From the NCBI GenBank assembly GCA_027067085.1, contig JAMOMM010000261.1, forward strand, positions 1-39,422: a stretch of DNA of 39,422 nucleotides. The letters are read 5' to 3'. The translations under genes were made by a program, and so were the position numbers. Position 1 is the first letter of the stretch, and each line of letters begins with the position of its first letter. Source of the stretch: Hyphomicrobiales bacterium. GTDB lineage: Bacteria; Pseudomonadota; Alphaproteobacteria; Rhizobiales; Aestuariivirgaceae. Under the pieces are notes generated by a model. The model did no database searches, had not been told where the DNA came from, and saw nothing but the letters and a program-made list of their open reading frames with translations. This document shows, piece after piece, positions 1 through 32,216 of this stretch.

Positions 1-180
1 AATGCTTCAAATACGTCATTGCGTTCGTCTTGAGAATAGCTGGCCAAAAAGTTTTGACAGTAATTATTACAAGCTCTCCAATGTCAAAACATCCAATAGG
101 CGGGTCAAGTCCAACAAGAAATTTTTGGGTGCACTCTCAGAGACAGACATACTTTTCACAGGTGCCACAACCACTTTCTC

Positions 181-641
181 TTAGCTTAAGACAACACGCT
201 GTCGGGCACGCACTGAAACAGTGCCAATATTGAATACAGCGACTTCGTTTTCCACCAGTATCACCGTCCGCAAACCCAATACCTTCATACTCAAGAAAGC
301 TTATCTCAAAATCAACATTCCATAGGCCAACATTACTTAACCCTACCACCAAATTTGCACCGTCAAAAGCTTTTGCCTTTAACCTTGCACGATCAGCACC
401 AATTTTTGGTGACCCGCTGACCAAGACTTCCATCAAGTGAACACCATATAACTGGATATCTACATTGTCAGAAACTTTCTTAGCTGGTGGCAGCAAAAAA
501 TGTTTCATACCGCCAACACACACAACAGGACCATTTAAACAAACAGCAACATATGACCCCAATACAATACTGGATTTTTCGAAACAAAGCCTCTCCTTGC
601 AAAATATGAATTATGTTTTTTGACTGGAGGGGTGTACTCAT
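181..641 (-). pseudogene. cheD: cheD-like chemoreceptor glutamine deamidase, disrupted by two frameshifts
   Basis: Consecutive CheD-like segments lie in three frames. First is MSTPLQSKNIIHILQGEALF (ATG at 641). Second is SSIVLGSYVAVCLNGPVVCVGGMKHFLLP..YGVHLMEVL..GADRARLKAKAFDGAN..GGKRSRCIQYW (ORF-track 137..562). Third is TVSVRARQRVVLS, ending at TAA 181-183. The first shift is near the T5 run at 575-579. The conserved LGSC cysteine reads Tyr (GSY). Confidence 0.75.
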
Positions 642-944: not shown

Positions 945-1764
945 GCTCAGGACCTATTAAATTTCATGATTCACTATTTGGAGAAAGAGATTTCATCATG
1001 AGCAATTTTTATTATTTAACACCTGAACAGATATCGCGTATTGAACCATATTTTCCGTTGTCTCACAGCGTGGCCCACGTTGATGATCGGCGTGCTATTA
1101 GCGGCAATTATCCATATTTTGAAACGTGGCCTTCAATGGCATGATGCGCCTCGTTAATACGGCCCCTACAAGACCTTATACAACCGCTTTATCCGCTGGA
1201 GTAAAATGGGTGTGTTTGATAAAATATTCAAAGCTCTTGTCCAAGCCCAAGGTGCGCCTGAACGATTGCAAATAGATGCAACCCATTTAAAGGCCCATCG
1301 AATCGCAGCAAGTCTGCTAAAAAAAGGGATGTTCCCCGCGCTATTAGACGGATAAAAGGTGGTTTAACGTCAAAATTGCATGCGGTTTGCGATGGCTAGG
1401 CGCGCCCTGTTTTGTTACTTTTATCGTAAGGTCAGATGAGTGATTATAAGGGTGCAGAAATATTGTTAGATGAATTGCCACGTGGCAAATTCATGTTGGC
1501 TGATCGCGGTTACGATACGTTCTGGTTCAGGGATGGGTTGAAAAGAAAAAGCATAAAGCCTTGTATTCCAGCAAAAAAGAACAAAAAAACTGATATTCCA
1601 CACGATAAAACATTGCACAAACAACGCCATAAAATTGAAAATATGTTTGACAGACTGAAGGACTGGCGGCGCATCACAACGCGCTATGACAGATACGCCC
1701 ACACCTTCTCTCGGCCATTTGCATCGCAGCTTTCGTTATATGGTGGCTTTAATGAGTCCTGACC
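945..1764 (+). mobile_element. IS5-family insertion sequence (IS427/IS1031-like), 820 bp, transposase degenerate
   Basis: Terminal inverted repeats are GCTCAGGACCTATTAAA (945-) and TTTAATGAGTCCTGACC (-1764), with 3 mismatches. Transposase-like segments are MSNFYYLTPEQISRIEPYFP..VDDRRAISG, IIHILKRGLQWHDAPR*YGPYKTLYNRFIRWSKMGVF..LQIDATHLKAHR, and RRIKGGLTSKLHAVCDG*ARP..S*GQMSDYKGAEILLDELP..ADRGYD..MFDRLKDWRRITTRYDR. There are three in-frame stops and one extra frameshift. The CTA AAA AAA GGG site (about 1317-1328) resembles the programmed -1 slippery site typical of this IS group. Confidence 0.85.
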
Positions 1765-1875: not shown

Positions 1876-2540
1876 TTACCTGAGTCAGCTTGATAACCTT
1901 GTTTAGTATATCGCACTCAACTACGCTTGCGATTCGACATGATGCTAACTCCTCAATAGCATCCATTGAATCAATAGTTTTCTCTACATTTCTGACACTG
2001 TGTGAGCTCGCAAGAACAATCGATGTAATTCCCTTTGCGACATCTTCAGACGCAAGCTTTTATTCTGCTAGCATTGTTGCGATCTGCGCCATATTATCTG
2101 TAGTTTTTTCTATTTTTCACGGATACCACTCATTCGTTCGCTGGCTTTTCAATAGCATACTTGCCAGTTACAACTGAGTTAGTTGTACTGTCCATTTCCA
2201 ACAAAACACCCTTACTTTCTTTTTGTAAACTTTTTATTATGCCATCAATTTCGTCGGTGGAGCTTTCCGTCTACTCGATTAAACTTTTAATTCCACCTGC
2301 TAGTACCGAAAACCCTTCACCAGCATCTCCTGCTCAGGCTGCTTCAATATTTGCATTTAACACAAGCAATTTCATCCTGTAAGCAATTGATTTAATCACA
2401 TCTGCCGTTTCGGCAACTTCAATGGACAAACGCGCCATCTGACTCAAATCAATATTTGAGTCTTGAGCGAGTTTATTGTTCAGCTAACGCAACTCCCCAG
2501 ACACATCACACTCACCCAAGCATCCAGCCTCACACTAGAT
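1876..2540 (-). pseudogene. methyl-accepting chemotaxis protein remnant (cytoplasmic signalling domain only)
   Basis: The highly conserved MCP hairpin region reads IAYRMKLLVLNANIEAA*AGDAGEGFSVLAGGIKSLIE*TESSTDEIDGII (TGA at 2334-2336, TAG at 2271-2273). Further stops and a frameshift follow before IEKTTDNMAQIATMLAE*KLASEDVAKGITSIV..DAIEELAS. No transmembrane or ligand-binding part was detected. Boundaries are approximate. Confidence 0.75.
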
Positions 2541-2643
2541 TTAAAAACGCCTTACTCAGCAAAAAAACCAATACGTTAACTCCCTTGAAAGTTTTGTTTT
2601 TTAAACTCAAAGAATACGGATGCTTAGAACATGATATTCTAAT

Positions 2644-2682
2644 GGCATGAAGCCGCGCAGCCGTGTAGGTTCAATCCGACAT
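2644..2682 (+). promoter_or_regulatory. degenerate copy (A) of the flagellin-type bipartite motif
   Basis: The sequence is GGCATGAAGCC-gcgcagccgtg-TAGGT-tcaa-TCCGACAT. It has the same block order and the same 11-nt spacer as the copies at 22570-22609 (minus) and 28925-28964 (plus), with 3 substitutions and a 1-nt deletion. Confidence 0.45.
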
Positions 2683-2843
2683 TTTTTCAATACCTATCGC
2701 TCTTTGCACTGATTTTTTTAGTACAATTCATAAGGCGTTCGATTTGGCATGCAGCTGATTGGGAATATTTTCCTATCTGTTGACCACAAATAGGAAATTG
2801 AAACTTAAACACCACTTTCCTTTGTCAGTAGATTGGAAGATCA

Positions 2844-3023
2844 ATGATTTATTTTGGAATACCTGGCCTAGTTGTTTTTTTGATCCTGTTTTTTGGTATC
2901 GTAAACCTTGTGCTTTATAAAATCCTATGGGACAAAATAAACTCTAGGCCCGAGCGGTCAATAGTAGTTTTTGATTCAAAACAATTTCACACGTCTGACA
3001 AGTCAAAAAAGCATCCAATGTAA
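2844..3023 (+). CDS. small hypothetical single-pass membrane protein (59 aa, below the ORF-track cutoff)
   Basis: ATG at 2844 is preceded by GGAAGA (2835-2840). The protein is MIYFGIPGLVVFLILFFGIVNLVLYKILWDKINSRPERSIVVFDSKQFHTSDKSKKHPM, a hydrophobic helix followed by a basic tail. No homolog recognised. Confidence 0.3.
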   Translation: MIYFGIPGLVVFLILFFGIVNLVLYKILWDKINSRPERSIVVFDSKQFHTSDKSKKHPM

Positions 3024-5126: not shown

Positions 5127-5522
5127 TTAGCTCTTTTTCATCAACGATATTTCAATGACTTCGAGAAGGTCTTGTTTAGCCTCTTCAGCCATACTAACAT
5201 TTTTCGCATCGATGAAAGCGCGCTCAATTTGTACTACTTTTCTTTGTTGACCTTGTAGGACTTTGGATTGACTTGAATAGATAACATCTAACGCTAAACC
5301 TTTTTTGGACACGGCAGTTAACTTTCTTCCGATCAAATCGGACAACAAAGCGCCATTAGAGTGGAAGTGATTTAGCGCAGAAACCAGAGTATCTTTATCT
5401 TCAATAACCTTATTTTTCTTTACCTGAGTATCAGATACTTTCCACTCATGTAGTTGCCTTAACTGCTTTTGCACTTCAAGCATCCGCTTTAATTTTTTCA
5501 GTCGTATTTTCAAATCAGCCAT
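5127..5522 (-). CDS. coiled-coil protein of the flagellar operon (possibly FliJ-like)
   Basis: A 131-aa charged heptad-like protein (LKIRLKKLKRMLEVQKQLRQLHEWK). It overlaps the fliR stop by 8 nt. Confidence 0.4.
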   Translation of the reverse strand: MADLKIRLKKLKRMLEVQKQLRQLHEWKVSDTQVKKNKVIEDKDTLVSALNHFHSNGALLSDLIGRKLTAVSKKGLALDVIYSSQSKVLQGQQRKVVQIERAFIDAKNVSMAEEAKQDLLEVIEISLMKKS

Positions 5523-6279: not shown

Positions 6280-8366
6280 GATATTTCCCCAAGATTGACA
6301 ATTTCTACGCCCCGTGCAATTTCAAGCTGGGAGAGCACAGGCAGTGTTGGGAAAAGCCGTTCTGTTATCATACGCACAAACGGCCTCGCGTCTGGTGCAG
6401 TTACCAATACAAACTGCTCGCCCGCATCCATCAACTTTCGAATCGATGTTGAAGCATCCGTCGAAAACTCTTCAATCATTGCAGGATCAATACTGAACTC
6501 AACAGCATCGCTTACATCATCTCGTTTTATACTTTCGTGAAAAGCAAGGTCCCAACGATTACCTAAGCGCAAAACATTTATTGCACGTCCTTGGGTCAGG
6601 TCACCACAAATTTGACGCGAAATCCTCACTCGCACATGCTCTACAATTTGTTCAGGACGCTGAGCATGAGGTGCAATTTCAGCAATCGCTTCAAGAATCA
6701 AATCTAGATTTCGAATTGATACTCTTTCGCTCAGCAATAATTTGAACACTGCTTGAATACCCGAATAAGTAATTTGCGCAGGGCAAATTTCATCAATCAA
6801 ACGTTGATACTCAGGGTCAAGTCGATCAAGAATTTTTCGCATATCTTTATAAGACAAAAGCGTCGCTAGGTTATTACGAATAGTTTCGCTTAAATGCGTC
6901 AACATTACAGACATGGCGTCAACAGGCTGGAAGCCTGCCACTTTTGCTTCGTTTTCAAACACTTTTGAAATCCAAAGCGCCTTCATGCCAAATGCAGGCT
7001 CTCTAGCTTCTTCACCAGGGATATCTGGTGCTTGGCGTTCACCTATAATTAAAAGCAGTTCATCTGCTCTAAGTTTTTGAGAAGCGGCAACAGTTCCATG
7101 CATCTTTATCTGATAACTTTTGGGATCCGTATCAAAACTGTCAGAGAGTTTTATCTCAGGAAATACAAATCCAAAGCTTGTGGCAAATTTGCGCCTCATT
7201 TTAGCGACCCGATTAGTCAATTCACCTTGCGAAGCATTGAATGTCAATGCTAGTTGCTTACCAAGACACAGTTCAATGCTGGGCATTTTAAGAAGCTCTT
7301 GTATATTGTTCTGCGCTTCGAGGGTTTTTTCCTGAGTTTCTTGGTGGGCCTTTTCAAGTAATTTCTCATGGTTTTTCTCTTTGTTTGAGGAAATTGTATA
7401 TGCAGAAAAACTTAAAATCCCAGCTATTGTTGCAAAGGGGAAAAATGGCATCCCAGGCACAACGGCCATTAACAACATCAACAAGGCGCCAACATTTAAT
7501 GCCTTTGGATAATTACTCAACTGCCCCAAAACAACATGCTCGGCAGAACCTCGATTTCCCCCTTTTGAAACCAGAAGGCCTGCTGCAAGTGATACGATCA
7601 ACGCAGGTATTTGCGATACCAGCCCATCACCAACTGATAGTCGCGTAAAAACATCTGCGGCTTCACTAATCGGCATGTCATATCGCGTTACACCAATAAT
7701 AATGCCACCAAAAATATTAATTGCAGTGATGATTAATCCAGCAACGGCATCTCCTCGTACAAATTTTGATGCACCATCCATCGCACCAAAAAAAGAACTT
7801 TCTTCTTCCAATTCTTTACGACGAGATTGCGCTTGTTTTTCATCTATCAAGCCCGCTGATAAATCAGCGTCAATTGCCATCTGTTTTCCTGGAATCGAAT
7901 CAAGCGTAAAGCGTGCGCCAACTTCAGCAATTCGCGTTGCGCCCTTGGTAATTACCATAAAGTTAATAATGACCAAAATTGCAAAAACTATTAATCCAAT
8001 TACAAAATCACCACTCATAACAAACGTGGAAAACCCGCCAATAACGTTTCCTGCAGCTGTATACCCCTCATTTCCGTTCGCTAAGATCAACCGTGTCGAA
8101 GCAATATTTAAGGATAGACGCAACATGGTCGCAATCAGTAAAATTGTTGGAAACGCCGAAAAATCCAATGGCTTCTCAATCCACAAAGAAACCATTAAAA
8201 TCAATACTGAAAGCGCAATTGACAATGCTAATCCCAAGTCCAGTAATGTGGCAGGGACGGGCAAAAATAAGATCATCAATATGGCAAGAATACCAATCGC
8301 AAATCCTGTATCTCGATAGTGGGACGTTTGGCCCATGCCAGCGGCGCCAAAAGGTTCTTCTGACAT
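6276..8366 (-). CDS. flhA: flagellar export apparatus protein FlhA
   Basis: A 696-aa ORF with hallmark motifs [34 protein letters not shown] and [19 protein letters not shown]. Confidence 0.97.
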
Positions 8367-8404
8367 AAAAAATCCTGACGGTTGAAAAGTAACCGTTTGT
8401 TATT

Positions 8405-8674
8405 TTAACCAAATCCGCTTTCAATGCGGCCATAAACAATGTCTGTAAACTTTTGAATTTCAGCACCGATAAATGGAGCTGTTGCGATAAGAACAAAAAA
8501 GATAACAACAATTTTGGGAATAAAAGTTAACGTTATTTCTTGAACTTGTGTCAGCGCTTGGATCAAAGCAATCGATAGTCCAATCACCATTGCAGCCAAG
8601 ACAGCTGGACCAGATGCAGTTATCACCACCCAAATTGCGACCCTAACAAGGTCGAGTGCATCGGCTTGATTCAT
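8405..8674 (-). CDS. fliQ: flagellar export apparatus protein FliQ
   Basis: An 89-aa, two-TM protein (VITASGPAVLAAMVIGLSIALIQALTQVQEITLTFIPK). Confidence 0.92.
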   Translation of the reverse strand: MNQADALDLVRVAIWVVITASGPAVLAAMVIGLSIALIQALTQVQEITLTFIPKIVVIFFVLIATAPFIGAEIQKFTDIVYGRIESGFG

Positions 8675-9075
8675 TAGTTTGAAACCCTAACCCCGGGACC
8701 AAGCTTAACTTGCGCGCCGCTCTCCAGTGTTGCCACAACAGAATCTGAGAAAAACTGGACGCTCGTTACCACACCAGTCTGGCTACCATCAGCAGAGGTA
8801 ACCGTTTTACCTATAGTTGCTGGTCCTTGGGCCATCGCGAGATTAGCTATCACTGTATCAAGTCTTGCATTTGTTTGAATGGCTTGCTCAACAGAAGAGA
8901 ACGAGGCAAGTTGAGCCATATACTGGCTCGAATCCATCGGTTTTGTTGGATCTTGATATTGCATTTCCGCTACCATTAATTGCAAAAAAGCATCATAATC
9001 CAAGGTTGCTTTTTGTGAGGCCTCACTCACGCTTTGTGATTGGGTGGCTTGCGTTCCAACAGCTTGTACAGGCAT
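8674..9075 (-). CDS. flgD: hook capping/assembly protein FlgD
   Basis: Contains the motif DYDAFLQLMVAEMQYQDPTKPMDSSQYMAQLASFSSVEQ. The junction with fliQ is a TAATG overlap. Confidence 0.9.
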   Translation of the reverse strand: MPVQAVGTQATQSQSVSEASQKATLDYDAFLQLMVAEMQYQDPTKPMDSSQYMAQLASFSSVEQAIQTNARLDTVIANLAMAQGPATIGKTVTSADGSQTGVVTSVQFFSDSVVATLESGAQVKLGPGVRVSN

Positions 9076-9077
9076 AT

Positions 9078-9533
9078 TTAACTCCTTTGCATTGTTTTAA
9101 GTTCTTCAATTGGCTCATCGTTCTGTGCTTGCTCACGTTGCATCGCCTTCAACATCATGTCCTCGATAACAAATAGTTTTCGTAGAGTTTTAAGTGCTTC
9201 AAAGTTACGAGCAGAATTAACTAAATTTTTCACCTCTATTAAACCCTCTGCAAGGTCATCGCTTGGGCACATCGCGACAATTTGAGTGTGCATTTGATAG
9301 AAGTTTTGACGCGTTTCAAAACCCGCTTCTGGGTCAACGAGTAACTTTTGTAAATTAGTGTACATTTTTTTAAGTGGTGTTGTGGCTTGACTCGGCTTCA
9401 ACATATGGCTTTCAAGAAGAAAAGTGACGGTGTTGAGAAATTCCAATGAGGTCTTTCGATCAACGCGAACCATCGCTCCATTTATGAAAATAGTTTCACC
9501 AGCCCTCAATGATATTTGAATAGTATGCTTCAT
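9078..9533 (-). CDS. flbT: flagellin synthesis regulator FlbT
   Basis: The N-terminus is IQISLRAGETIFINGAMVRVDRKTSLEFLNTVTFLLESHMLKPSQATTPLKKMY, typical of FlbT. It is adjacent to flaF. Confidence 0.85.
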   Translation of the reverse strand: MKHTIQISLRAGETIFINGAMVRVDRKTSLEFLNTVTFLLESHMLKPSQATTPLKKMYTNLQKLLVDPEAGFETRQNFYQMHTQIVAMCPSDDLAEGLIEVKNLVNSARNFEALKTLRKLFVIEDMMLKAMQREQAQNDEPIEELKTMQRS

Positions 9534-9877
9534 GATAAGCCCTGTTTCAACATCTTTGAAACCTCTATCAAATTTTTAAAATCTTTACTTTGGCCCTGGC
9601 GTAAACGCTCTATTTCTTGCAGCACCCAAATTCCCACTGAAATGATATCTGCCTTTAAAATATCATCGAAACCATTTTCTTTTTTTGTCAGGTCCTCGAT
9701 AAAGAACACCCAAAGCCGGTGGACAAAAAACTGCGCCTCAATAGCTTGCATCGACCCAATGCCATGTTCTTGGGCAGCGTATAAAAGTTCTAATGCTTTA
9801 TCAAAAGCTACAGATTCATTTTCGCGCTCAGCTTGACTGCCGTCATTTCTGATTTCTTGGTAACTACTTTGGTACAT
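9530..9877 (-). CDS. flaF: flagellin synthesis regulator FlaF
   Basis: A 115-aa protein with FFVHRLWVFFIEDL..ADIISVGIWVLQEIERL..IEVSKMLKQGL. It has a 4-nt overlap with flbT. Confidence 0.85.
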   Translation of the reverse strand: MYQSSYQEIRNDGSQAERENESVAFDKALELLYAAQEHGIGSMQAIEAQFFVHRLWVFFIEDLTKKENGFDDILKADIISVGIWVLQEIERLRQGQSKDFKNLIEVSKMLKQGLS

Positions 9878-21594: not shown

Positions 21595-22518
21595 TTATCT
21601 GAACAAGGACAAGACGTTCTGACTTGATGAGTTTGCAATGCTTAGCGCTTGCACACCCAACTGTTGTTGAACTTGTAACGCTTTCAAACGAGTTGATTCA
21701 GCGGTCATATCAGCATCAACCAATTCACCTACTCCACGCGAAATTGCATCCATAAGATTGGAAACAAAATCTTTTTGCATATCAACACGTTTCTTAGTTG
21801 CACCAAGGTTACTCGCCGCTGTCGTCATTGACTGATGTGCGCCATCAACTGTAGAAATAATTTCATCCAAGTCTGCAAGATCAGCTACGGAATCTGTGTA
21901 AGCAGAAACATCTACTGTCGCTACAGAATACGTTACTGCTCCATTGGTGGTTGTACTTGTAGTGTCAAGTATACCAGATCCGCCAGCATCAGCATCATAG
22001 AGTTTAACGTTGGCGGTGTTTACATCAATCGTACCGACCGTAACGCCCGTTGCAGAACGCGTGAATGATGCAACTATTGACTTACTGGCATTGTAACCAA
22101 CAGCACCAGAATCAACTGAAAGCCAGTTTTCACCAGAAAATGATGCAGAACTAGCAATACTGACCAACTGATTTTGCAACTCATCAACTTCAGCTTGAAT
22201 TGCAACACGATCAACACCCGGTTCACGTGCAGCCACAATTTTTGCTTTAATTTCGTCGACAACTTCTAAGCTAGACTCCATCGCAGTATAGGCCACATCA
22301 ACTGTTGCTGCACCCAAGCCAAGTGCATCGGTTACTGTGCCTAAAGCTTTGTTATCAGAGCGCATTGTTGTCGCAATTGACCAATAGGCTGCGCTGTCAG
22401 ATGCTGTAGCTACTTTATAGCCCGTAGCAATACGGTTTTGAGTTGTTTCTAAGTTTGAATTTGTTTGATTAAGCGTTTGTAGCGCCGTCATCGCTGATGC
22501 ATTTGTCATAATTGACAT
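21595..22518 (-). CDS. fla: flagellin (rhizobial type), single copy in the window
   Basis: The N-terminus is MTNASAMTALQTLNQTNSNLETTQNRIATGYKVATASDSAAYWSIATTMRSDNKALG. It also has SFSGENWL, and the C-terminus is ESTRLKALQVQQQLGVQALSIANSSSQNVLSLFR. Confidence 0.96.
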   Translation of the reverse strand: MSIMTNASAMTALQTLNQTNSNLETTQNRIATGYKVATASDSAAYWSIATTMRSDNKALGTVTDALGLGAATVDVAYTAMESSLEVVDEIKAKIVAAREPGVDRVAIQAEVDELQNQLVSIASSASFSGENWLSVDSGAVGYNASKSIVASFTRSATGVTVGTIDVNTANVKLYDADAGGSGILDTTSTTTNGAVTYSVATVDVSAYTDSVADLADLDEIISTVDGAHQSMTTAASNLGATKKRVDMQKDFVSNLMDAISRGVGELVDADMTAESTRLKALQVQQQLGVQALSIANSSSQNVLSLFR

Positions 22519-22569
22519 AGTTTCAAGTCCTTTACGTTACTTACTAGTTTATACTATTTTTGTAAGAAC

Positions 22570-22609
22570 ATATCGGACTTGCACCGACACAGTGAAACGG
22601 CATCATGCC
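22570..22609 (-). promoter_or_regulatory. bipartite motif upstream of flagellin (candidate promoter/operator)
   Basis: The minus strand reads GGCATGATGCC-gtttcactgtg-TCGGT-gcaag-TCCGATAT and ends about 50 nt upstream of the flagellin ATG. The last block resembles a CGA-type -10 element such as GCCGATAA. The three blocks are identical to the copy at 28925-28964. Confidence 0.6.
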
Positions 22610-22688
22610 ATTGGGCTAGAGTTAAAAAGCGCCCAATCCACTATACTCGGACACATTATTCAATAGGTGTTAAAATTTAGTTAAAAAT

Positions 22689-28351: not shown

Positions 28352-28747
28352 TTAACCTTTCACACTCATCAATAACATACGATGAAATGACTTCACTATA
28401 TTTGCGTTGAGCGCATACGATCGCGCAACTTCACTACCCTTTATTAATTCAGCTTCAATAGAAACAGAGTTCCCTGAGTGTGATATTTCAATGCTTTGAG
28501 TTGTACCTTTCGAAGCATGCGAACGATCAGTAATTCCTTGCGCATTAAGATGCTTTGAATGAGTTCGACTTAAGCCACCAGAAAAACCTGATGCTTGAGA
28601 TTTTAAAATGCTTGAAAATGGTTCAATTTCACGCGATTGATATCCAGTAGTACTTGCATTTGCAATGTTACTTGCAATAACCCCTTGCTTCTCTGTAAGC
28701 CACTGGGCCTTTTGCGAAGCTATCGAAAAGAGTTGTACGCTGCTCAT
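28352..28747 (-). CDS. flgB: proximal rod protein FlgB
   Basis: Contains the motif [23 protein letters not shown]. It is the first gene of the flgB-to-fliP operon. Confidence 0.9.
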
Positions 28748-28924
28748 AACACCCCCAAAAAGTTTGTTAAGGAATTGTTAAGAGTTAAAGCTTGCCCGAA
28801 GCTTAAATCGAACCAAGAACTGTCCGAATATTGGGGAGTGCCTCACTTTTACCTTTTGTCAACTTTTCAAGGTTAATTTAATTTGTGGCTAGTTTTCGCA
28901 TATACCAAATAGCGAACAATTAAA

Positions 28925-28964
28925 GGCATGATGCCAAAAAGCCACATCGGTTCAAATCCGATAT
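28925..28964 (+). promoter_or_regulatory. bipartite flagellin-type motif (copy B) oriented toward the small-ORF/diguanylate-cyclase unit
   Basis: The sequence is GGCATGATGCC-aaaaagccaca-TCGGT-tcaaa-TCCGATAT. All 24 block positions are identical to the flagellin copy, and the spacer has the same length but an unrelated sequence. It lies about 150 nt upstream of ATG 29113 and about 180 nt upstream of the divergent flgB. Confidence 0.55.
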
Positions 28965-29112
28965 TTCCTTTCATAAGTTTTTATCCACATTGTTTTGTGC
29001 GCTTGTCACCCCAGTTTGTTTTTTAAGGTGGTAATCGATAGTCGTTGCTTAATTGCGATAGCTAATGCTTGGCCATGCTTGCATCCAACTCAATTCCGAC
29101 AGAGGAAGAAGC

Positions 29113-29376
29113 ATGTCCTTTTTTACTATACTTGCGATATCATCAGTTGCCTTACCAACCCAATTACCTCAGAGCAATGAATTCGGGTTTTTATTTCAAA
29201 TAGACTCTTTTAGCCCACTGGTCGTCGAGTATGTGGTTTCTTGTTCACGGTTAACACCAAAGGGAAAAGGCTACGGAATTATATCGTACTCGAGTGTCGA
29301 TCGTTTTTACTGCACACCCTCTCAACACTGTTTTAAAAAACTGAGGATAGCACACAGGGAAACTTGTGGTTTCTAA
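29113..29376 (+). CDS. small hypothetical Cys-containing protein (87 aa)
   Basis: ATG at 29113 has an AGAGGAAG Shine-Dalgarno 4 nt upstream. The protein starts MSFFTILAISSVALPTQLPQSNE.., a weakly signal-like N-terminus, and has 4 Cys. It ends 41 nt before the GGDEF gene. The ORF-track form (29065) starts upstream at a non-ATG codon. Confidence 0.4.
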   Translation: MSFFTILAISSVALPTQLPQSNEFGFLFQIDSFSPLVVEYVVSCSRLTPKGKGYGIISYSSVDRFYCTPSQHCFKKLRIAHRETCGF

Positions 29377-29417
29377 GTCCGCTAAACAAAACAATTTTAT
29401 TTTCAGAGTGACAAAAT

Positions 29418-30479
29418 ATGCTACAAAAAAACTATCAAATATCCATTCCAGATATCGACAATACAGATAACATCGATTCCGAGTATGCCCACTCTGTTAA
29501 GGTGGCAAATGATGTTTTTAAATTGGTAGAAACTCACACGACACCGCCAGTCCCACAAACGTACGACCTTTGGTACCAATATGTACAAGGAAATGACAAA
29601 GATCTCAATCAGCAAATTGATGCCATCATAGATCGTGGAAAACACCTAAGTCAGCAAGATATTGAACTTATTCACCAGAGTTTTGCTGATAACAATCACC
29701 AACAAATAAATGAAATTGGTGAAGATCTGGAAGAGGCGTGCCTTCAACTAATGAGCATGCTGACATCGCATATAAATCTCAATGACGGCTATGAAAACTC
29801 CCTGATAGAGGCCAACGCTGAACTGAACGCCAACCCCACTCCCGAGAATTTAAAGCTCGTGGTCAAAGCATTAATTTCTGAAAATGAGAAAGTTACAAAA
29901 AACTCTTCGAAACTCAAACAAGAACTTTCAACAGCAGTAAGTTCATTGGAGGAGCTAAACGAGGACCTTAGAAAGTCAAGAAAAAACGAACTAACAGACC
30001 CATTGACACTTATAGGAAATCGTAAAAAGTTTAACATATCACTTGCCCAAAACCTTCAACTTGCCCAAGAAAAATGTATTCATTTTTCTGTTATCATTGC
30101 TGATTTAGACAACTTTAAAATCGTTAATGACAATTTTGGACACCTCGTCGGCGATGCAATTTTGAAATTATTTGCAAAAATAATGATTAAGAATGTCAAA
30201 GGTCGAGATATCGTTACGCGTTATGGCGGAGAGGAGTTTGCGCTCATACTTCCCAGCACAGACCTGAACGGAGCATTCCTTGTAGCCGAACAAATCCGCC
30301 TTGACCTTTCTTCTCAAAACCTTCAAGTCACAGAAAATAAAAACCCAGTTGGAGTTGTCACTGCATCGTTTGGCATTAGCCAGTACCGCAAGGGCGACAC
30401 ATCTCAATCCATAGTCGCGAGAGCCGACAAAAGGTTATATGAGGCAAAGAGGGGTGGACGGAATCAAGTAAAAAAATAG
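29418..30479 (+). CDS. GGDEF-domain diguanylate cyclase with an N-terminal coiled-coil region
   Basis: Contains ELTDPLTLIGNRKKF, FSVIIADLDNFKIVNDNFGHLVGDAIL, RYGGEEFALILP (intact GGEEF) and ADKRLYEAKRGGRNQV. The I-site position reads KGRD rather than RxxD. No TM segments are present. Confidence 0.92.
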   Translation: MLQKNYQISIPDIDNTDNIDSEYAHSVKVANDVFKLVETHTTPPVPQTYDLWYQYVQGNDKDLNQQIDAIIDRGKHLSQQDIELIHQSFADNNHQQINEIGEDLEEACLQLMSMLTSHINLNDGYENSLIEANAELNANPTPENLKLVVKALISENEKVTKNSSKLKQELSTAVSSLEELNEDLRKSRKNELTDPLTLIGNRKKFNISLAQNLQLAQEKCIHFSVIIADLDNFKIVNDNFGHLVGDAILKLFAKIMIKNVKGRDIVTRYGGEEFALILPSTDLNGAFLVAEQIRLDLSSQNLQVTENKNPVGVVTASFGISQYRKGDTSQSIVARADKRLYEAKRGGRNQVKK

Positions 30480-30530
30480 ATCAAAATTTGCGTAAATCCT
30501 TGTACTCTCCCCAAAGAGATTAGGGCGCAA

Positions 30531-30560
30531 GCTGGATTGTGGCACCCATCACAATCCAGC
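30531..30560 (+). other. stem-loop downstream of the GGDEF gene
   Basis: GCTGGATTGTG-gcacccat-CACAATCCAGC forms an 11-bp perfect stem. No U-tract follows. Confidence 0.4.
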
Positions 30561-30618
30561 AAACTATTTAGGCAAAATTGACAAGCAACACTCTCTCTGT
30601 CCAAACTGTTGTTTGTTT

Positions 30619-30668
30619 AAACGGTCAGGTTTGATGTAAAATCAAATCTGACCGTTTGTTTTGTAATT
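30619..30668 (+). terminator. rho-independent terminator of the GGDEF unit
   Basis: AAACGGTCAGGTTTGAT-gtaaa-ATCAAATCTGACCGTTT forms a 17-bp stem with one G-U pair, followed by GTTTTGTAATT. Confidence 0.7.
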
Positions 30669-30851: not shown

Positions 30852-32216
30852 TCATTGCGATAGAGTTTTAGACAGTTCAGCAAATACATCTAAAACATGA
30901 GGTGCATCAGCTTCTTGCTGCAGAGTCTTGTAAATTTTTGGAACCCAGACGATAGCTTGGTCGATATCTAAATCTACACCAGGCGTATACCCACCAATTA
31001 ATCTCAAATCCCTAGAATCTTCGTAACGAGCAATAAAAGAACGCAACATTAAAATCAATTTTTCCTGCTCAGCTGTCCAGCTATGCTTTGCCAAACGCGA
31101 TACAGACGACAAAATATTTACCGCTGGATACCGACCTTGCTCAGCGATTGACCGATCTAGCACAATATGCCCATCTAGAGTCCCACGAACATTATCCGCA
31201 ACTGGGTCATTAATATCATCGCCATCAACCAAAACCGAAAAAATACCTGTAATCGCACCACAGTCTTCATATCCTGTTCCGGCTCGCTCAAGCAATTTAG
31301 GCATTTCAGAAAAAACTTCGGGCGGATACCCGCGCGACACTGGCGTTGCACCCGATGCTAACAACACATCACGACTGGCATGGGCAAACCGCGTAATTGA
31401 ATCGACAATCAACAAAACATGCTCACCACGATCGCGAAAATATTCGGCAATCGTAAGCGCAATTTTTGGCGCCATTCGCCGCATCATTGCACTTTCATCA
31501 CTTGTTGAAACAACACCAATTGCTTTACTCGCGTTAGAACCAATTGCATCTTCAATAAACTCTCTGACTTCGCGTCCTCTTTCACCAACCAAAGCAAAAA
31601 CCACTCTATCAAATTCTTGGGAGCGAGCAAGCATGGTTAAAAAAGTAGACTTTCCAACACCTGACCCAGCAAAAACACCAATCCGTTGCCCTTGACAAAT
31701 TGGGGTAAACAAATCGACTGCTTTAATCCCCGTTTTAATAGGAACATTTACTCGTTTGCGCCTCATTGCATCGGGTGGTGCGCGATCCACACTCACCGCA
31801 CAATCGCCTTGTTCAAGCTCTCCAAGCCCATCGATTGGCTGACCAAGTCCATTGAGTATTCGCCCACTCCAACTCTCATCAGGCCGCAAAGTGAGTGAAC
31901 CCTTTCTCCAAACTGGTGTACCAAGCCTAATATCCAAGTTAGACTGAAAGGACTTTACAGTTACTGTCGACTTATTAATGGAAATTACTTGGCCAAGATA
32001 CTCGATTTTTTGACGGCCTTGTTGGTTCACATCAAGAGAAACACATTCGCCAAGTTTGACAAACCGCGACAAGCCAGAAACCTGATAACTTGATGGTGTA
32101 ATCTCAACGACATAGCCTTTTACACGTATGAAGTTATTTTCTTCAACGACACTTTTGACGATATTATTAAAGCGTAATAAACGGTCAAAATTAGAGTGCT
32201 CAGGCTGAAGGTTCAA
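30852..32216 (-). CDS. fliI: flagellum-specific ATPase FliI
   Basis: Contains Walker A (GVFAGSGVGKST), Walker B (VLLIVDSITRFA) and PPEVFSEMPKLLERAG. Confidence 0.97.
   Translation of the reverse strand: MNLQPEHSNFDRLLRFNNIVKSVVEENNFIRVKGYVVEITPSSYQVSGLSRFVKLGECVSLDVNQQGRQKIEYLGQVISINKSTVTVKSFQSNLDIRLGTPVWRKGSLTLRPDESWSGRILNGLGQPIDGLGELEQGDCAVSVDRAPPDAMRRKRVNVPIKTGIKAVDLFTPICQGQRIGVFAGSGVGKSTFLTMLARSQEFDRVVFALVGERGREVREFIEDAIGSNASKAIGVVSTSDESAMMRRMAPKIALTIAEYFRDRGEHVLLIVDSITRFAHASRDVLLASGATPVSRGYPPEVFSEMPKLLERAGTGYEDCGAITGIFSVLVDGDDINDPVADNVRGTLDGHIVLDRSIAEQGRYPAVNILSSVSRLAKHSWTAEQEKLILMLRSFIARYEDSRDLRLIGGYTPGVDLDIDQAIVWVPKIYKTLQQEADAPHVLDVFAELSKTLSQ

Follow-up and report, generated by a model that had tools for sequence, protein, structure and literature searches.

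Why does a gene for the synthesis of cyclic di-guanosine monophosphate (c-di-GMP) stand on the opposite strand in the middle of a flagellar gene cluster, between flgB and fliI, and does its product belong to the flagellar programme? The question is raised by contig JAMOMM010000261.1 of the Hyphomicrobiales bacterium assembly GCA_027067085.1, which was analyzed over its whole length of 39,422 nucleotides (the window). In the interval between the minus-strand genes fliI and flgB a plus-strand unit is found that consists of a leader, an open reading frame (ORF) of 87 aa, a GGDEF ORF of 353 aa and a terminator. Such a unit had been described in an earlier note on this DNA, and all its claimed parts were found at the claimed positions: the small cysteine-containing ORF has the Shine-Dalgarno (SD) sequence GAGGAAGAAGC in front, the 353-aa protein carries GGEEF at residues 270–274 and KGRD at residues 261–264, i.e., at the place of the inhibitory site (I-site), and the strong terminator is a stem-loop at 30618–30658, in which 18 bp enclose a loop of 5 nt and T-rich sequence follows. 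What is new here is that the enzyme is a DgcB-family cyclase that is tied to the flagellar programme in two ways, by the position of its gene and by the leader predicted for its mRNA.

The closest database relatives of the GGDEF protein are 47–59% identical to it, with one further copy at 95%. For six relatives, five reached via the GGDEF protein and one via the small ORF, the gene context could be read, and in all six the unit keeps its orientation and has flgB and fliI as its neighbours. Counting those with a GGDEF protein of 47–59% identity, eight metagenomic relatives have the unit at this place, in each case together with the motif. The records of the relatives comprise three metagenome-assembled genomes (MAGs) from NCBI as well as contigs from ENA, JGI and Logan, and one bin is labelled hydrothermal vent metagenome (MNBD_ALPHA08). 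The synteny of unit and leader is kept in the loci L006, L008, L009, L010, L093, L094, L095, L296, and L297, and the leader itself was found 5′ of the GGDEF unit in L006, L008, L009, L010, L093, L094, and L095. The divergence of the GGDEF protein within this clade (48–59% identity) is in step with that of the neighbouring FlgB (46–55%), FlgF (56–60%), and FliI (71–72%), from which vertical inheritance of the unit in this clade follows. Judged from these sequences it is not a recent insert, and its GC content is in line with the surroundings and shows no anomaly. In L006, an intact gene for a NIT-HAMP-MCP protein (MCP: methyl-accepting chemotaxis protein) follows directly after the cyclase gene, i.e., a chemoreceptor joined the unit there.

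Outside the clade, the comparison was made with 80 fliI loci from GTDB representatives, whose FliI proteins are at most 59% identical to that of the window and whose genera include Agrobacterium, Rhizobium, Ensifer, Shinella, Hoeflea, Neorhizobium, Bradyrhizobium, and Lichenihabitans. None of these 80 Rhizobiales loci has a GGDEF domain within 5 kb of fliI, which bears out the map that the earlier note gave for Sinorhizobium, Agrobacterium, and Brucella, with no cyclase in the fliI–flgB interval. Where flgB is present, in about 50 of the 80 loci, it lies 0.6–2.1 kb downstream of fliI on the same strand; the unit, kept in the clade and missing from these approximately 50 other Rhizobiales with adjacent fliI and flgB, is a lineage-specific addition, as had been supposed. 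The leader was not found near fliI in nine tested loci of the other Rhizobiales. Unlike the window gene, dgcB-family genes from outside the clade do not stand behind the leader or in a flagellar cluster: the distant homologues (25–39% identical) of Pannonibacter, Undibacter, Phenylobacterium, Ensifer, and a Rhizobiaceae MAG have no flagellar genes next to them and no leader in front. As the leader is absent both near fliI elsewhere and from these genes, the relocation and the leader are innovations of this clade. The case that relatives might have the same gene without the motif, raised in the earlier note, was checked, and they have gene and motif both. One exception by proximity was seen in L219, an alphaproteobacterial MAG outside the clade, in which a DgcB-family gene (approx. 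7659–8997) lies 2.6 kb from flgK/flgE without a leader; this looks like a second, independent flagellar linkage of a DgcB-family gene.

The assignment of the cyclase is based on sequence, fold and architecture. The PF00990 profile matches residues 193–350 with 140.1 bits at a cut-off of 23.8 bits and is covered from position 3 to 161 of 161. The protein is built from a helical N-terminal domain (approx. residues 21–138) with a TPPxPxxYxLWY motif, a coiled-coil stalk (142–191) and the GGDEF domain (193–350); the AlphaFold (AF2) model (pLDDT 81) likewise has a helical N-terminal domain, a stalk helix of 50 residues and a GGDEF fold. The best match in the PDB is Caulobacter crescentus DgcB both by sequence (6ttr; phmmer E 2e-29, aligned from residue 165) and by fold (6ttr/6tts; Foldseek TM 0.94 over the target, rmsd 1.4), and the DgcB fragment shares 43–48% identity, over corresponding coordinates, with further proteins of the family to which the window protein belongs. 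This C. crescentus reference is a fragment of coiled-coil and GGDEF domain, and the homology of the N-terminus was judged via an orthologue from Phenylobacterium, which has 57% identity to the fragment. Residues 17–351 of the window protein align with residues 3–341 of the Phenylobacterium protein (E 5e-53), with WPTPINYELW opposite TPPVPQTYDLWY. The alignment thus includes the N-terminal P-x-x-Y-x-LW motif, and the window protein belongs to the DgcB family over its full length. C. crescentus DgcB (CC1850) has the same three parts, a helical N-terminus with P-x-x-Y-x-LW, a coiled-coil stalk and a GGEEF domain, while the full-length identity of the window protein to a Caulobacterales orthologue is 29%.

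The active site is the GGEEF motif, and D229, D231, N237, D238, G241, H242, G245, D246, K344, G347, and R348 are invariant across 41 family members, with N349 being at least 90% conserved; the catalytic residues are also invariant in the alignments A1 and A6. By these residues the cyclase looks catalytically competent. An RxxD inhibitory site five residues before GGDEF is frequent in diguanylate cyclases, but not obligatory. When aligned to PleD and DgcB, KGRD occupies this position without being a canonical RxxD, and in the family K261 and G262 are at least 90% conserved and D264 is invariant. In Caulobacter, DgcB was reported to associate with the MotAB stators, and the “mechanical” branch of surface sensing by the flagellum was reported to depend on it (PMC7885107; 10.64898/2026.08.21.746235); it is also described as the main cyclase dedicated to motility regulation, opposed by the phosphodiesterase PdeA (PMC3764195). 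By analogy, the membership in this family would favour motor-coupled surface sensing over a simple timer or brake.

The second tie is the leader. Three copies in the window share GGCATGAWGCC, followed by 10 nt and a short hairpin; these are copy B in front of the cyclase unit, copy F in front of the flagellin gene and copy A. In the earlier note the motif of copy B started at 28925, and its block 1 (GGCATGATGCC, 28925–28935) was taken as a free-standing palindrome. Both points needed revision: the element begins approximately 43 nt further upstream, and block 1 is the junction strand of an RNA fold. In copy B, P0 is formed by 28885–28890 (GUGGCU) and 28940–28945 (AGCCAC), the P1 hairpin lies within 28892–28923, the junction strand at 28925–28935 has the invariant GGCAUGAUGCC, and P2 is formed by 28946–28950 (AUCGG) and 28958–28962 (CCGAU), followed by a U/C-rich tail at 28964–28972; the minimum-energy fold recovers P0, P1, and P2. 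The fold of copy F has a z-score of −4.7. A covariance model (CM), R2, was built from other Rhizobiales genomes only, without the window and its clade, and its score for copy B (49.8 bits, E 7e-11) makes this copy real and far above chance. With the whole window scored, there are exactly three full copies (F, B, A) and one truncated remnant, where a one-mismatch copy of block 1 is seen at 1138–1148.

Across the Rhizobiales the leader, which is 85–91 nt long in the cyclase unit, consists of the closing helix P0, the hairpin P1, the invariant GGCAUGANGCC, a 10-nt spacer and the hairpin P2. The last seven bases of the spacer pair with a conserved box 29–44 nt upstream, forming P0, and the arms of this helix change together (ACGACAG/CUGUCGU, AUGGCAG/CUGCCAU, AUAGCAA/UUGCUAU, GUGACAG/CUGUCAC), all 7 pairs covarying. 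P1 is a variable hairpin between the 5′ arm of P0 and GGCAUGANGCC, with arms such as UUGGGC/GCCCAA, UGGGAA/UUCCCA, and UCGAC/GUCGA. At two pairs of P2 the search pattern permitted every combination, and the observed combinations were A-U 28, G-C 13, G-U 11, and other 2 at pair 35–52, and C-G 38, U-A 15, U-G 1, and other 0 at pair 36–51. G-U pairs are thus common in P2 while A-C is nearly absent, and as G-U is tolerated and A-C is not, the leader is strand-specific, as expected for an RNA read from this strand. With 36 leaders in an unfitted MAFFT alignment, 89% of the cells are paired and 14 of the 17 pairs show double-sided changes; none of 500 shuffles reaches the observed pairing values, and sliding the partners lowers the pairing to 32–50%. 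A model-based alignment of 103 sequences agrees, with P0, P1, and P2 being 88–89% paired across both alignments.

Differential RNA sequencing (dRNA-seq) in Sinorhizobium meliloti placed the icpA start site at 701951, 221 nt before the coding sequence, with a −10 element (CCATAA) and a CtrA box just upstream (PMC3616915 supplements). The same promoter text is present in S. saheli and in L212 (Sinorhizobium/Ensifer-type), with the start 2–3 nt before P0 and approximately 37 nt upstream of the GCAUGA block. As the icpA start lies upstream of P0, the whole element is transcribed in S. meliloti. Taken together, covariation and start site show that the leader is a structured RNA, which lies within the transcript of S. 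meliloti icpA and presumably also within that of the window's unit. The suggestion that the palindromic block 1 could also serve the divergent flgB promoter does not fit these data, given a strand-specific leader, 14 of 17 pairs with compensatory changes and the icpA start upstream of it. Further readings of parts of the motif were tried and rejected: a sigma-54 reading of TGGCAT...GCC has a GG-to-GC spacing of 6 nt and not of 10, a sigma-28/sigma-70 −10 reading of CCGATAT meets compensated changes (CCGGTAT, CCGACAT) and no conserved −35, and a mimicry of the tRNA T-arm by GGTTCAAATCC meets a loop that is not conserved among the copies.

Which genes does this RNA mark? A pattern scan of GTDB genomes found at least 120 loci, almost all of them in Rhizobiales, and 148 leader instances were classified, the window and its relatives included. 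Among the matches listed, 58 of the 148 instances precede flagellin genes by 16–55 nt, those of tandem arrays in Bradyrhizobium among them, many lie before icpA-type globin-coupled chemoreceptors that head the che operon (Rhizobium, Ensifer, Neorhizobium), and others before a Hyphomicrobium MCP gene and before Microvirga genes for PAS-GGDEF-EAL and membrane GGDEF-EAL proteins. The leader-bearing tandem flagellins of Bradyrhizobium, approximately 300 aa in length, are presumably of the FlbT-dependent lateral type. The gene set of the leader corresponds to what rhizobial workers call class III (PMC8429497), and the inference that flagellin and cyclase are co-regulated is sound, with the leader being shared in every relative examined. 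From the Microvirga GGDEF-EAL genes it follows that c-di-GMP enzymes were placed behind the leader more than once. Among the loci L106, L110, L134, and L155 (Microvirga), L166, and L173, the genes behind the leader include, besides those for the large PAS-GGDEF-EAL and the membrane GGDEF-EAL proteins, one for an ABC/type I secretion-like ATPase and, in L173, one for a repeat protein of 1391 aa. The CM finds copies that the strict pattern missed (L172 at 5346–5428 and 7774–7859, L139 at 1809–1891), and the regulon per genome is therefore larger than the pattern scan suggests.

No family of Rfam 15 matches the leader, neither in the window (E up to 5) nor in 16 leader-bearing loci. This includes RF01736 (flg-Rhizobiales), a candidate cis-regulatory RNA of Rhizobiales named for flagellar genes (PMC2864571): it shares with the leader the host group and the flagellar naming, but its CM does not match the leader, with no hit at E up to 5–10 in the window and four loci and none at the gathering score in 12 further loci. 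A description of this leader or of a class III motif was not found in the searchable literature, and the leader appears to be an undescribed RNA family.

The remainder of the window is a flagellar cluster of the Rhizobiaceae type with flhA, flgD, flbT, flaF, flgL, flgK, flgE, a Rem/FtcR-like OmpR regulator, fliK, motB, fliF, one flagellin gene, fliP through flgB, fliI, flgF, and motA-fliM-fliN-fliG-flhB. The features that bear on the unit and its leader are collected in the table.

Table. Positions in the window of the cyclase unit, the leader copies and the associated flagellar genes.
Feature	Position	Strand	Evidence and remarks
flgB	28352–28747	−	Pfam match; opens the divergent rod operon; bounds the unit on the left
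Leader copy B	28882–28972	+	CM R1 56.9 bits; CM R2 49.8 bits, E 7e-11
87-aa ORF	29113–29376	+	GAGGAAGAAGC upstream of the start; four invariant cysteines
DgcB-family GGDEF protein, 353 aa	29418–30479	+	PF00990 E 7e-41
Intrinsic terminator	30618–30668	+	Between the convergent GGDEF and fliI genes
fliI	30852–32216	−	Pfam match; convergent right boundary of the unit
Flagellin	21595–22518	−	Behind leader copy F
Leader copy F	22562–22647	−	CM R2 66.2 bits, E 7e-15; ends 44 nt before the flagellin start codon
flbT	9078–9533	−	Pfam FlbT 8e-31
flaF	9530–9877	−	Pfam FlaF 1e-26
Leader copy A	2613–2690	+	CM R2 43.5 bits, E 2e-9; one A-G mismatch in P2
Truncated fourth leader	1119–1147	+	P1 and most of the junction strand (GGCAUGAUGC); CM partial match E 0.25–0.34

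Copy A precedes only a 59-aa ORF (2844–3023, plus strand) with a hydrophobic stretch that looks membrane-spanning, and this ORF may be either a real late flagellar gene or the leftover of a lost chemoreceptor or che gene. The fourth leader lies approximately 290 nt upstream of a transposase fragment and is probably the relic of a disrupted late gene. At this chemotaxis end of the window a short CheD-like ORF (141 aa), a DDE transposase fragment and a minus-strand remnant of an MCP signalling domain (66–79 aa) are found, at 137–562 (minus), 1436–1762 (plus), and 2199–2432 (minus), and this end of the cluster looks decayed; among the window ORFs examined there is no intact che operon or MCP gene. 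A CtrA-type box, TTAA-N7-TTAAC, is located at 22669–22684 on the minus strand, approximately 22 nt upstream of the 5′ box of the flagellin leader, and the relatives L006, L008, L093, and L094 have TTAR-N7-TTAAC before their flagellin leader, while the cyclase unit of relatives has a weaker TTAC-N7-CAAY at the corresponding place. The arrangement resembles that of S. meliloti, in which CtrA motifs lie 8–23 nt upstream of the icpA and flaD start sites (PMC3616915 supplement). Another conserved element, AAGCTTGCC[CT]GA[AG]GCT[TG], is present approximately 40–55 nt 5′ of the flgB start codon in the window (28788–28804) and in relatives (L006 7285–7301, L008 7384–7400, L093 6650–6666). On the flgB strand it permits a short hairpin, it is not matched by RF01736, and its candidate roles are those of flgB promoter, Rem-type site, and leader.

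The small ORF is an accessory part of the unit. Its alignment A3 has the invariant residues C44, C67, C73, and C85, an LVVE motif and the pattern G.IS.S..D...CTP..C, and the N-terminus is hydrophobic as in the homologues, i.e., probably a signal peptide. The product is predicted to be a small exported periplasmic protein, probably with disulfide bonds. Only eight homologues were found among 5.8 billion proteins, and all those with readable context are encoded directly 5′ of the cyclase gene between flgB and fliI. The sub-lineage of L093, L094, and L095 is without the ORF, and its leader runs straight into the cyclase gene. A longer start of the ORF at 29065 (103 aa) was considered and rejected; the homologues align from the start at 29113.

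How might the leader act? It would serve as the binding platform of a post-transcriptional regulator, for which FlbT and FlaF are the best candidates, because they are encoded in the window, act on the 5′ untranslated regions (UTRs) of flagellin mRNAs elsewhere and have an RNA determinant that is listed as unresolved. In Caulobacter and Brucella, FlbT and FlaF act on flagellin mRNA via the 5′ UTR, FlbT is required post-transcriptionally for the production of flagellin in Brucella and of the lateral flagellins in Bradyrhizobium, and the RNA determinant of FlbT is given in the literature as unresolved (PMC4347634, PMC8781033, PMC8429497). The window resembles these systems in that flagellin would likewise be controlled at the 5′ UTR and that flbT and flaF are both present. 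As noted by eye, in flagellin leaders the stretch AUGUCCC after P2 complements the SD region GGGACAU, and Microvirga leaders appear, likewise by eye, to have matching two-sided changes in this anti-SD pairing; in L093 and L094 a UUUUCCU stretch complements the SD AGGAAAA of the cyclase gene. This complementarity suggests a control of ribosome access, whereas in the window's copy B the anti-SD pairing is a possibility of low weight. A side observation concerns the CGU at the 3′ end of P0, for which two partners are available: the 5′ ACG, by which P0 is closed, and the AUG directly behind P2, by which P2 grows to 8 bp (A2 columns 32–34 and 53–55; A4 columns 4–6). These pairings are mutually exclusive and could form a switch beside the anti-SD stretch.

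The explanation that joins these results best, and which we consider rather probable, is that the clade moved a DgcB-type cyclase into the flagellar cluster behind a late-flagellar leader, by which it is co-controlled post-transcriptionally, and that the enzyme is linked to the motor. In this lineage, which is uncultured, Rhizobiales-like, low in GC and apparently marine, a DgcB-family gene would have moved between flgB and fliI, preceded in most members by the gene for the small cysteine-rich protein. The unit would also have gained the structured leader by which, throughout the Rhizobiales, late (“class III”) mRNAs for flagellum and chemotaxis are marked at their 5′ end. A post-transcriptional regulator, with FlbT and FlaF as candidates, would recognize the leader, and the cyclase mRNA would be translated or stabilized together with flagellin mRNA. 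Thereby the cyclase would be present only in cells that complete a flagellum, and could convert the status of motor and load into c-di-GMP, as Caulobacter DgcB does with MotAB upon obstruction of the flagellum. The c-di-GMP formed would then either make the cells change from swimming to attachment or act as a brake on the motor. That the enzyme is made only when a flagellum is built is most likely. The “delay or brake” proposed earlier is a compatible alternative, which sequence alone cannot separate from motor-coupled sensing.

Several points weigh against this explanation. The binding of the leader by FlbT is a candidate interaction, and FlbT is not known to control che, MCP or GGDEF genes. 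The minimum-energy fold of copy B does not contain the anti-SD pairing, its SD and AUG being paired with a nearby segment, and the transcription start of copy B is placed by homology only. The feedback by the product may differ, with KGRD instead of RxxD, and the Caulobacterales DgcB has PPRF where the window family has KGRD. Stator contact of the window cyclase, and with it the motor link, is predicted from the Caulobacter enzyme. Finally, the chemotaxis genes of the window look decayed, and its physiology may differ from that of model rhizobia.

Two rivals concern the leader itself. The motif could act on DNA, as class III promoter or operator for a transcription factor or an alternative sigma factor, and maybe serve flgB too. 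In its favour are the location upstream of genes, the palindromic form of GGCATGATGCC in some copies, the likeness of CCGATAT to a sigma-28 −10 element, and the usual description of class III control in rhizobia as transcriptional (PMC8429497). In block 1, however, the central base is free to vary, no conservation is seen at the expected −35 position, a simple sigma-70 consensus scan gives no promoter-like site at the motif, and in L093 the change to CCGGTAT with a compensating change in the 5′ arm breaks the −10 but keeps the hairpin. With strand-specific tolerance of G-U over A-C, the long-range helix P0 covarying at all 7 pairs, and the S. meliloti icpA start and −10 upstream of the whole element, we regard an action on DNA as improbable. 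Of a similarly small probability is that the leader is a riboswitch which senses c-di-GMP or another motility-linked metabolite and places the cyclase in a feedback loop. Its size and form are aptamer-like (approx. 85 nt, with two hairpins, a helix that closes the element and a junction strand of 11 invariant nt), the alternative pairing of CGU hints at a switch, and a gene set of flagellin, che/MCP and GGDEF-EAL genes is of the kind associated with c-di-GMP riboswitches in other phyla. No riboswitch model of Rfam matches it, though, the ligand is purely hypothetical, the junction is short for the pocket of a nucleotide second messenger, and the genetics of FlbT and FlaF already explain the post-transcriptional control of flagellin in relatives.

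The third rival leaves the RNA aside and holds that the linkage is without functional meaning, the neighbour being an ordinary or inactive GGDEF protein with no flagellar role. Genomes contain many GGDEF genes, which move about within them, no flagellar linkage is seen for homologues elsewhere, the I-site is non-canonical and the N-terminal sensor domain is uncharacterized. Against such a chance neighbourhood stand the invariance of all catalytic residues, the retention of position, orientation and leader down to 47% protein identity and in several environments, the chemoreceptor gene that joined the unit in L006, and a family that includes the one cyclase known to work with stators; we regard this rival as unlikely, if slightly less so than the other two. 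Beyond the co-controlled, motor-linked cyclase, a wider reading is offered as a tentative proposal that may well prove wrong: the leader of approximately 85 nt would be a new cis-regulatory RNA family and the missing class III device, which reads the status of flagellar assembly or export via FlbT/FlaF, or else binds a small molecule directly, and into which a DgcB cyclase was plugged. If this is true, the leader supplies class III control in Rhizobiales, which lack the sigma-28/FlgM checkpoint, and the capacity for c-di-GMP synthesis is gated by the flagellum itself. The leader, a by-product of this analysis, may matter more than the cyclase: conserved, covarying and not in Rfam, it is the most valuable lead, and it is a concrete, mutable target in S. 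meliloti, Agrobacterium, Brucella or Bradyrhizobium.

How does this arrangement compare with known systems? The c-di-GMP-I and c-di-GMP-II (GEMM) riboswitches are likewise structured leaders, and the genes downstream of them are those for flagella, chemotaxis, and GGDEF/EAL proteins. Their architecture differs from that of the leader, which has no sequence or structure match to them in the Rfam scans. In the class 3 flagellar regulon of E. coli and Salmonella, the phosphodiesterase PdeH/YhjH and the PilZ brake YcgR are under a sigma-28 promoter and c-di-GMP is kept low. There, likewise, a c-di-GMP module (pdeH/yhjH and ycgR) is expressed with flagellin at the last tier of the hierarchy; here, in contrast, the module is a cyclase and not a phosphodiesterase with a brake, and the shared device is an RNA leader and not a sigma-28 promoter. 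No flagellum-specific sigma factor is known for the lineage (PMC12826043). Flagella are increasingly seen as surface sensors with c-di-GMP as output, and the link of DgcB to the motor in Caulobacter is purely at the protein level. In the lineage described here two further levels are added, the position of the gene and the leader of the mRNA, and this position, together with a leader shared with flagellin, gives independent evidence, from evolution, that cyclases of the DgcB type are part of the flagellar machine.

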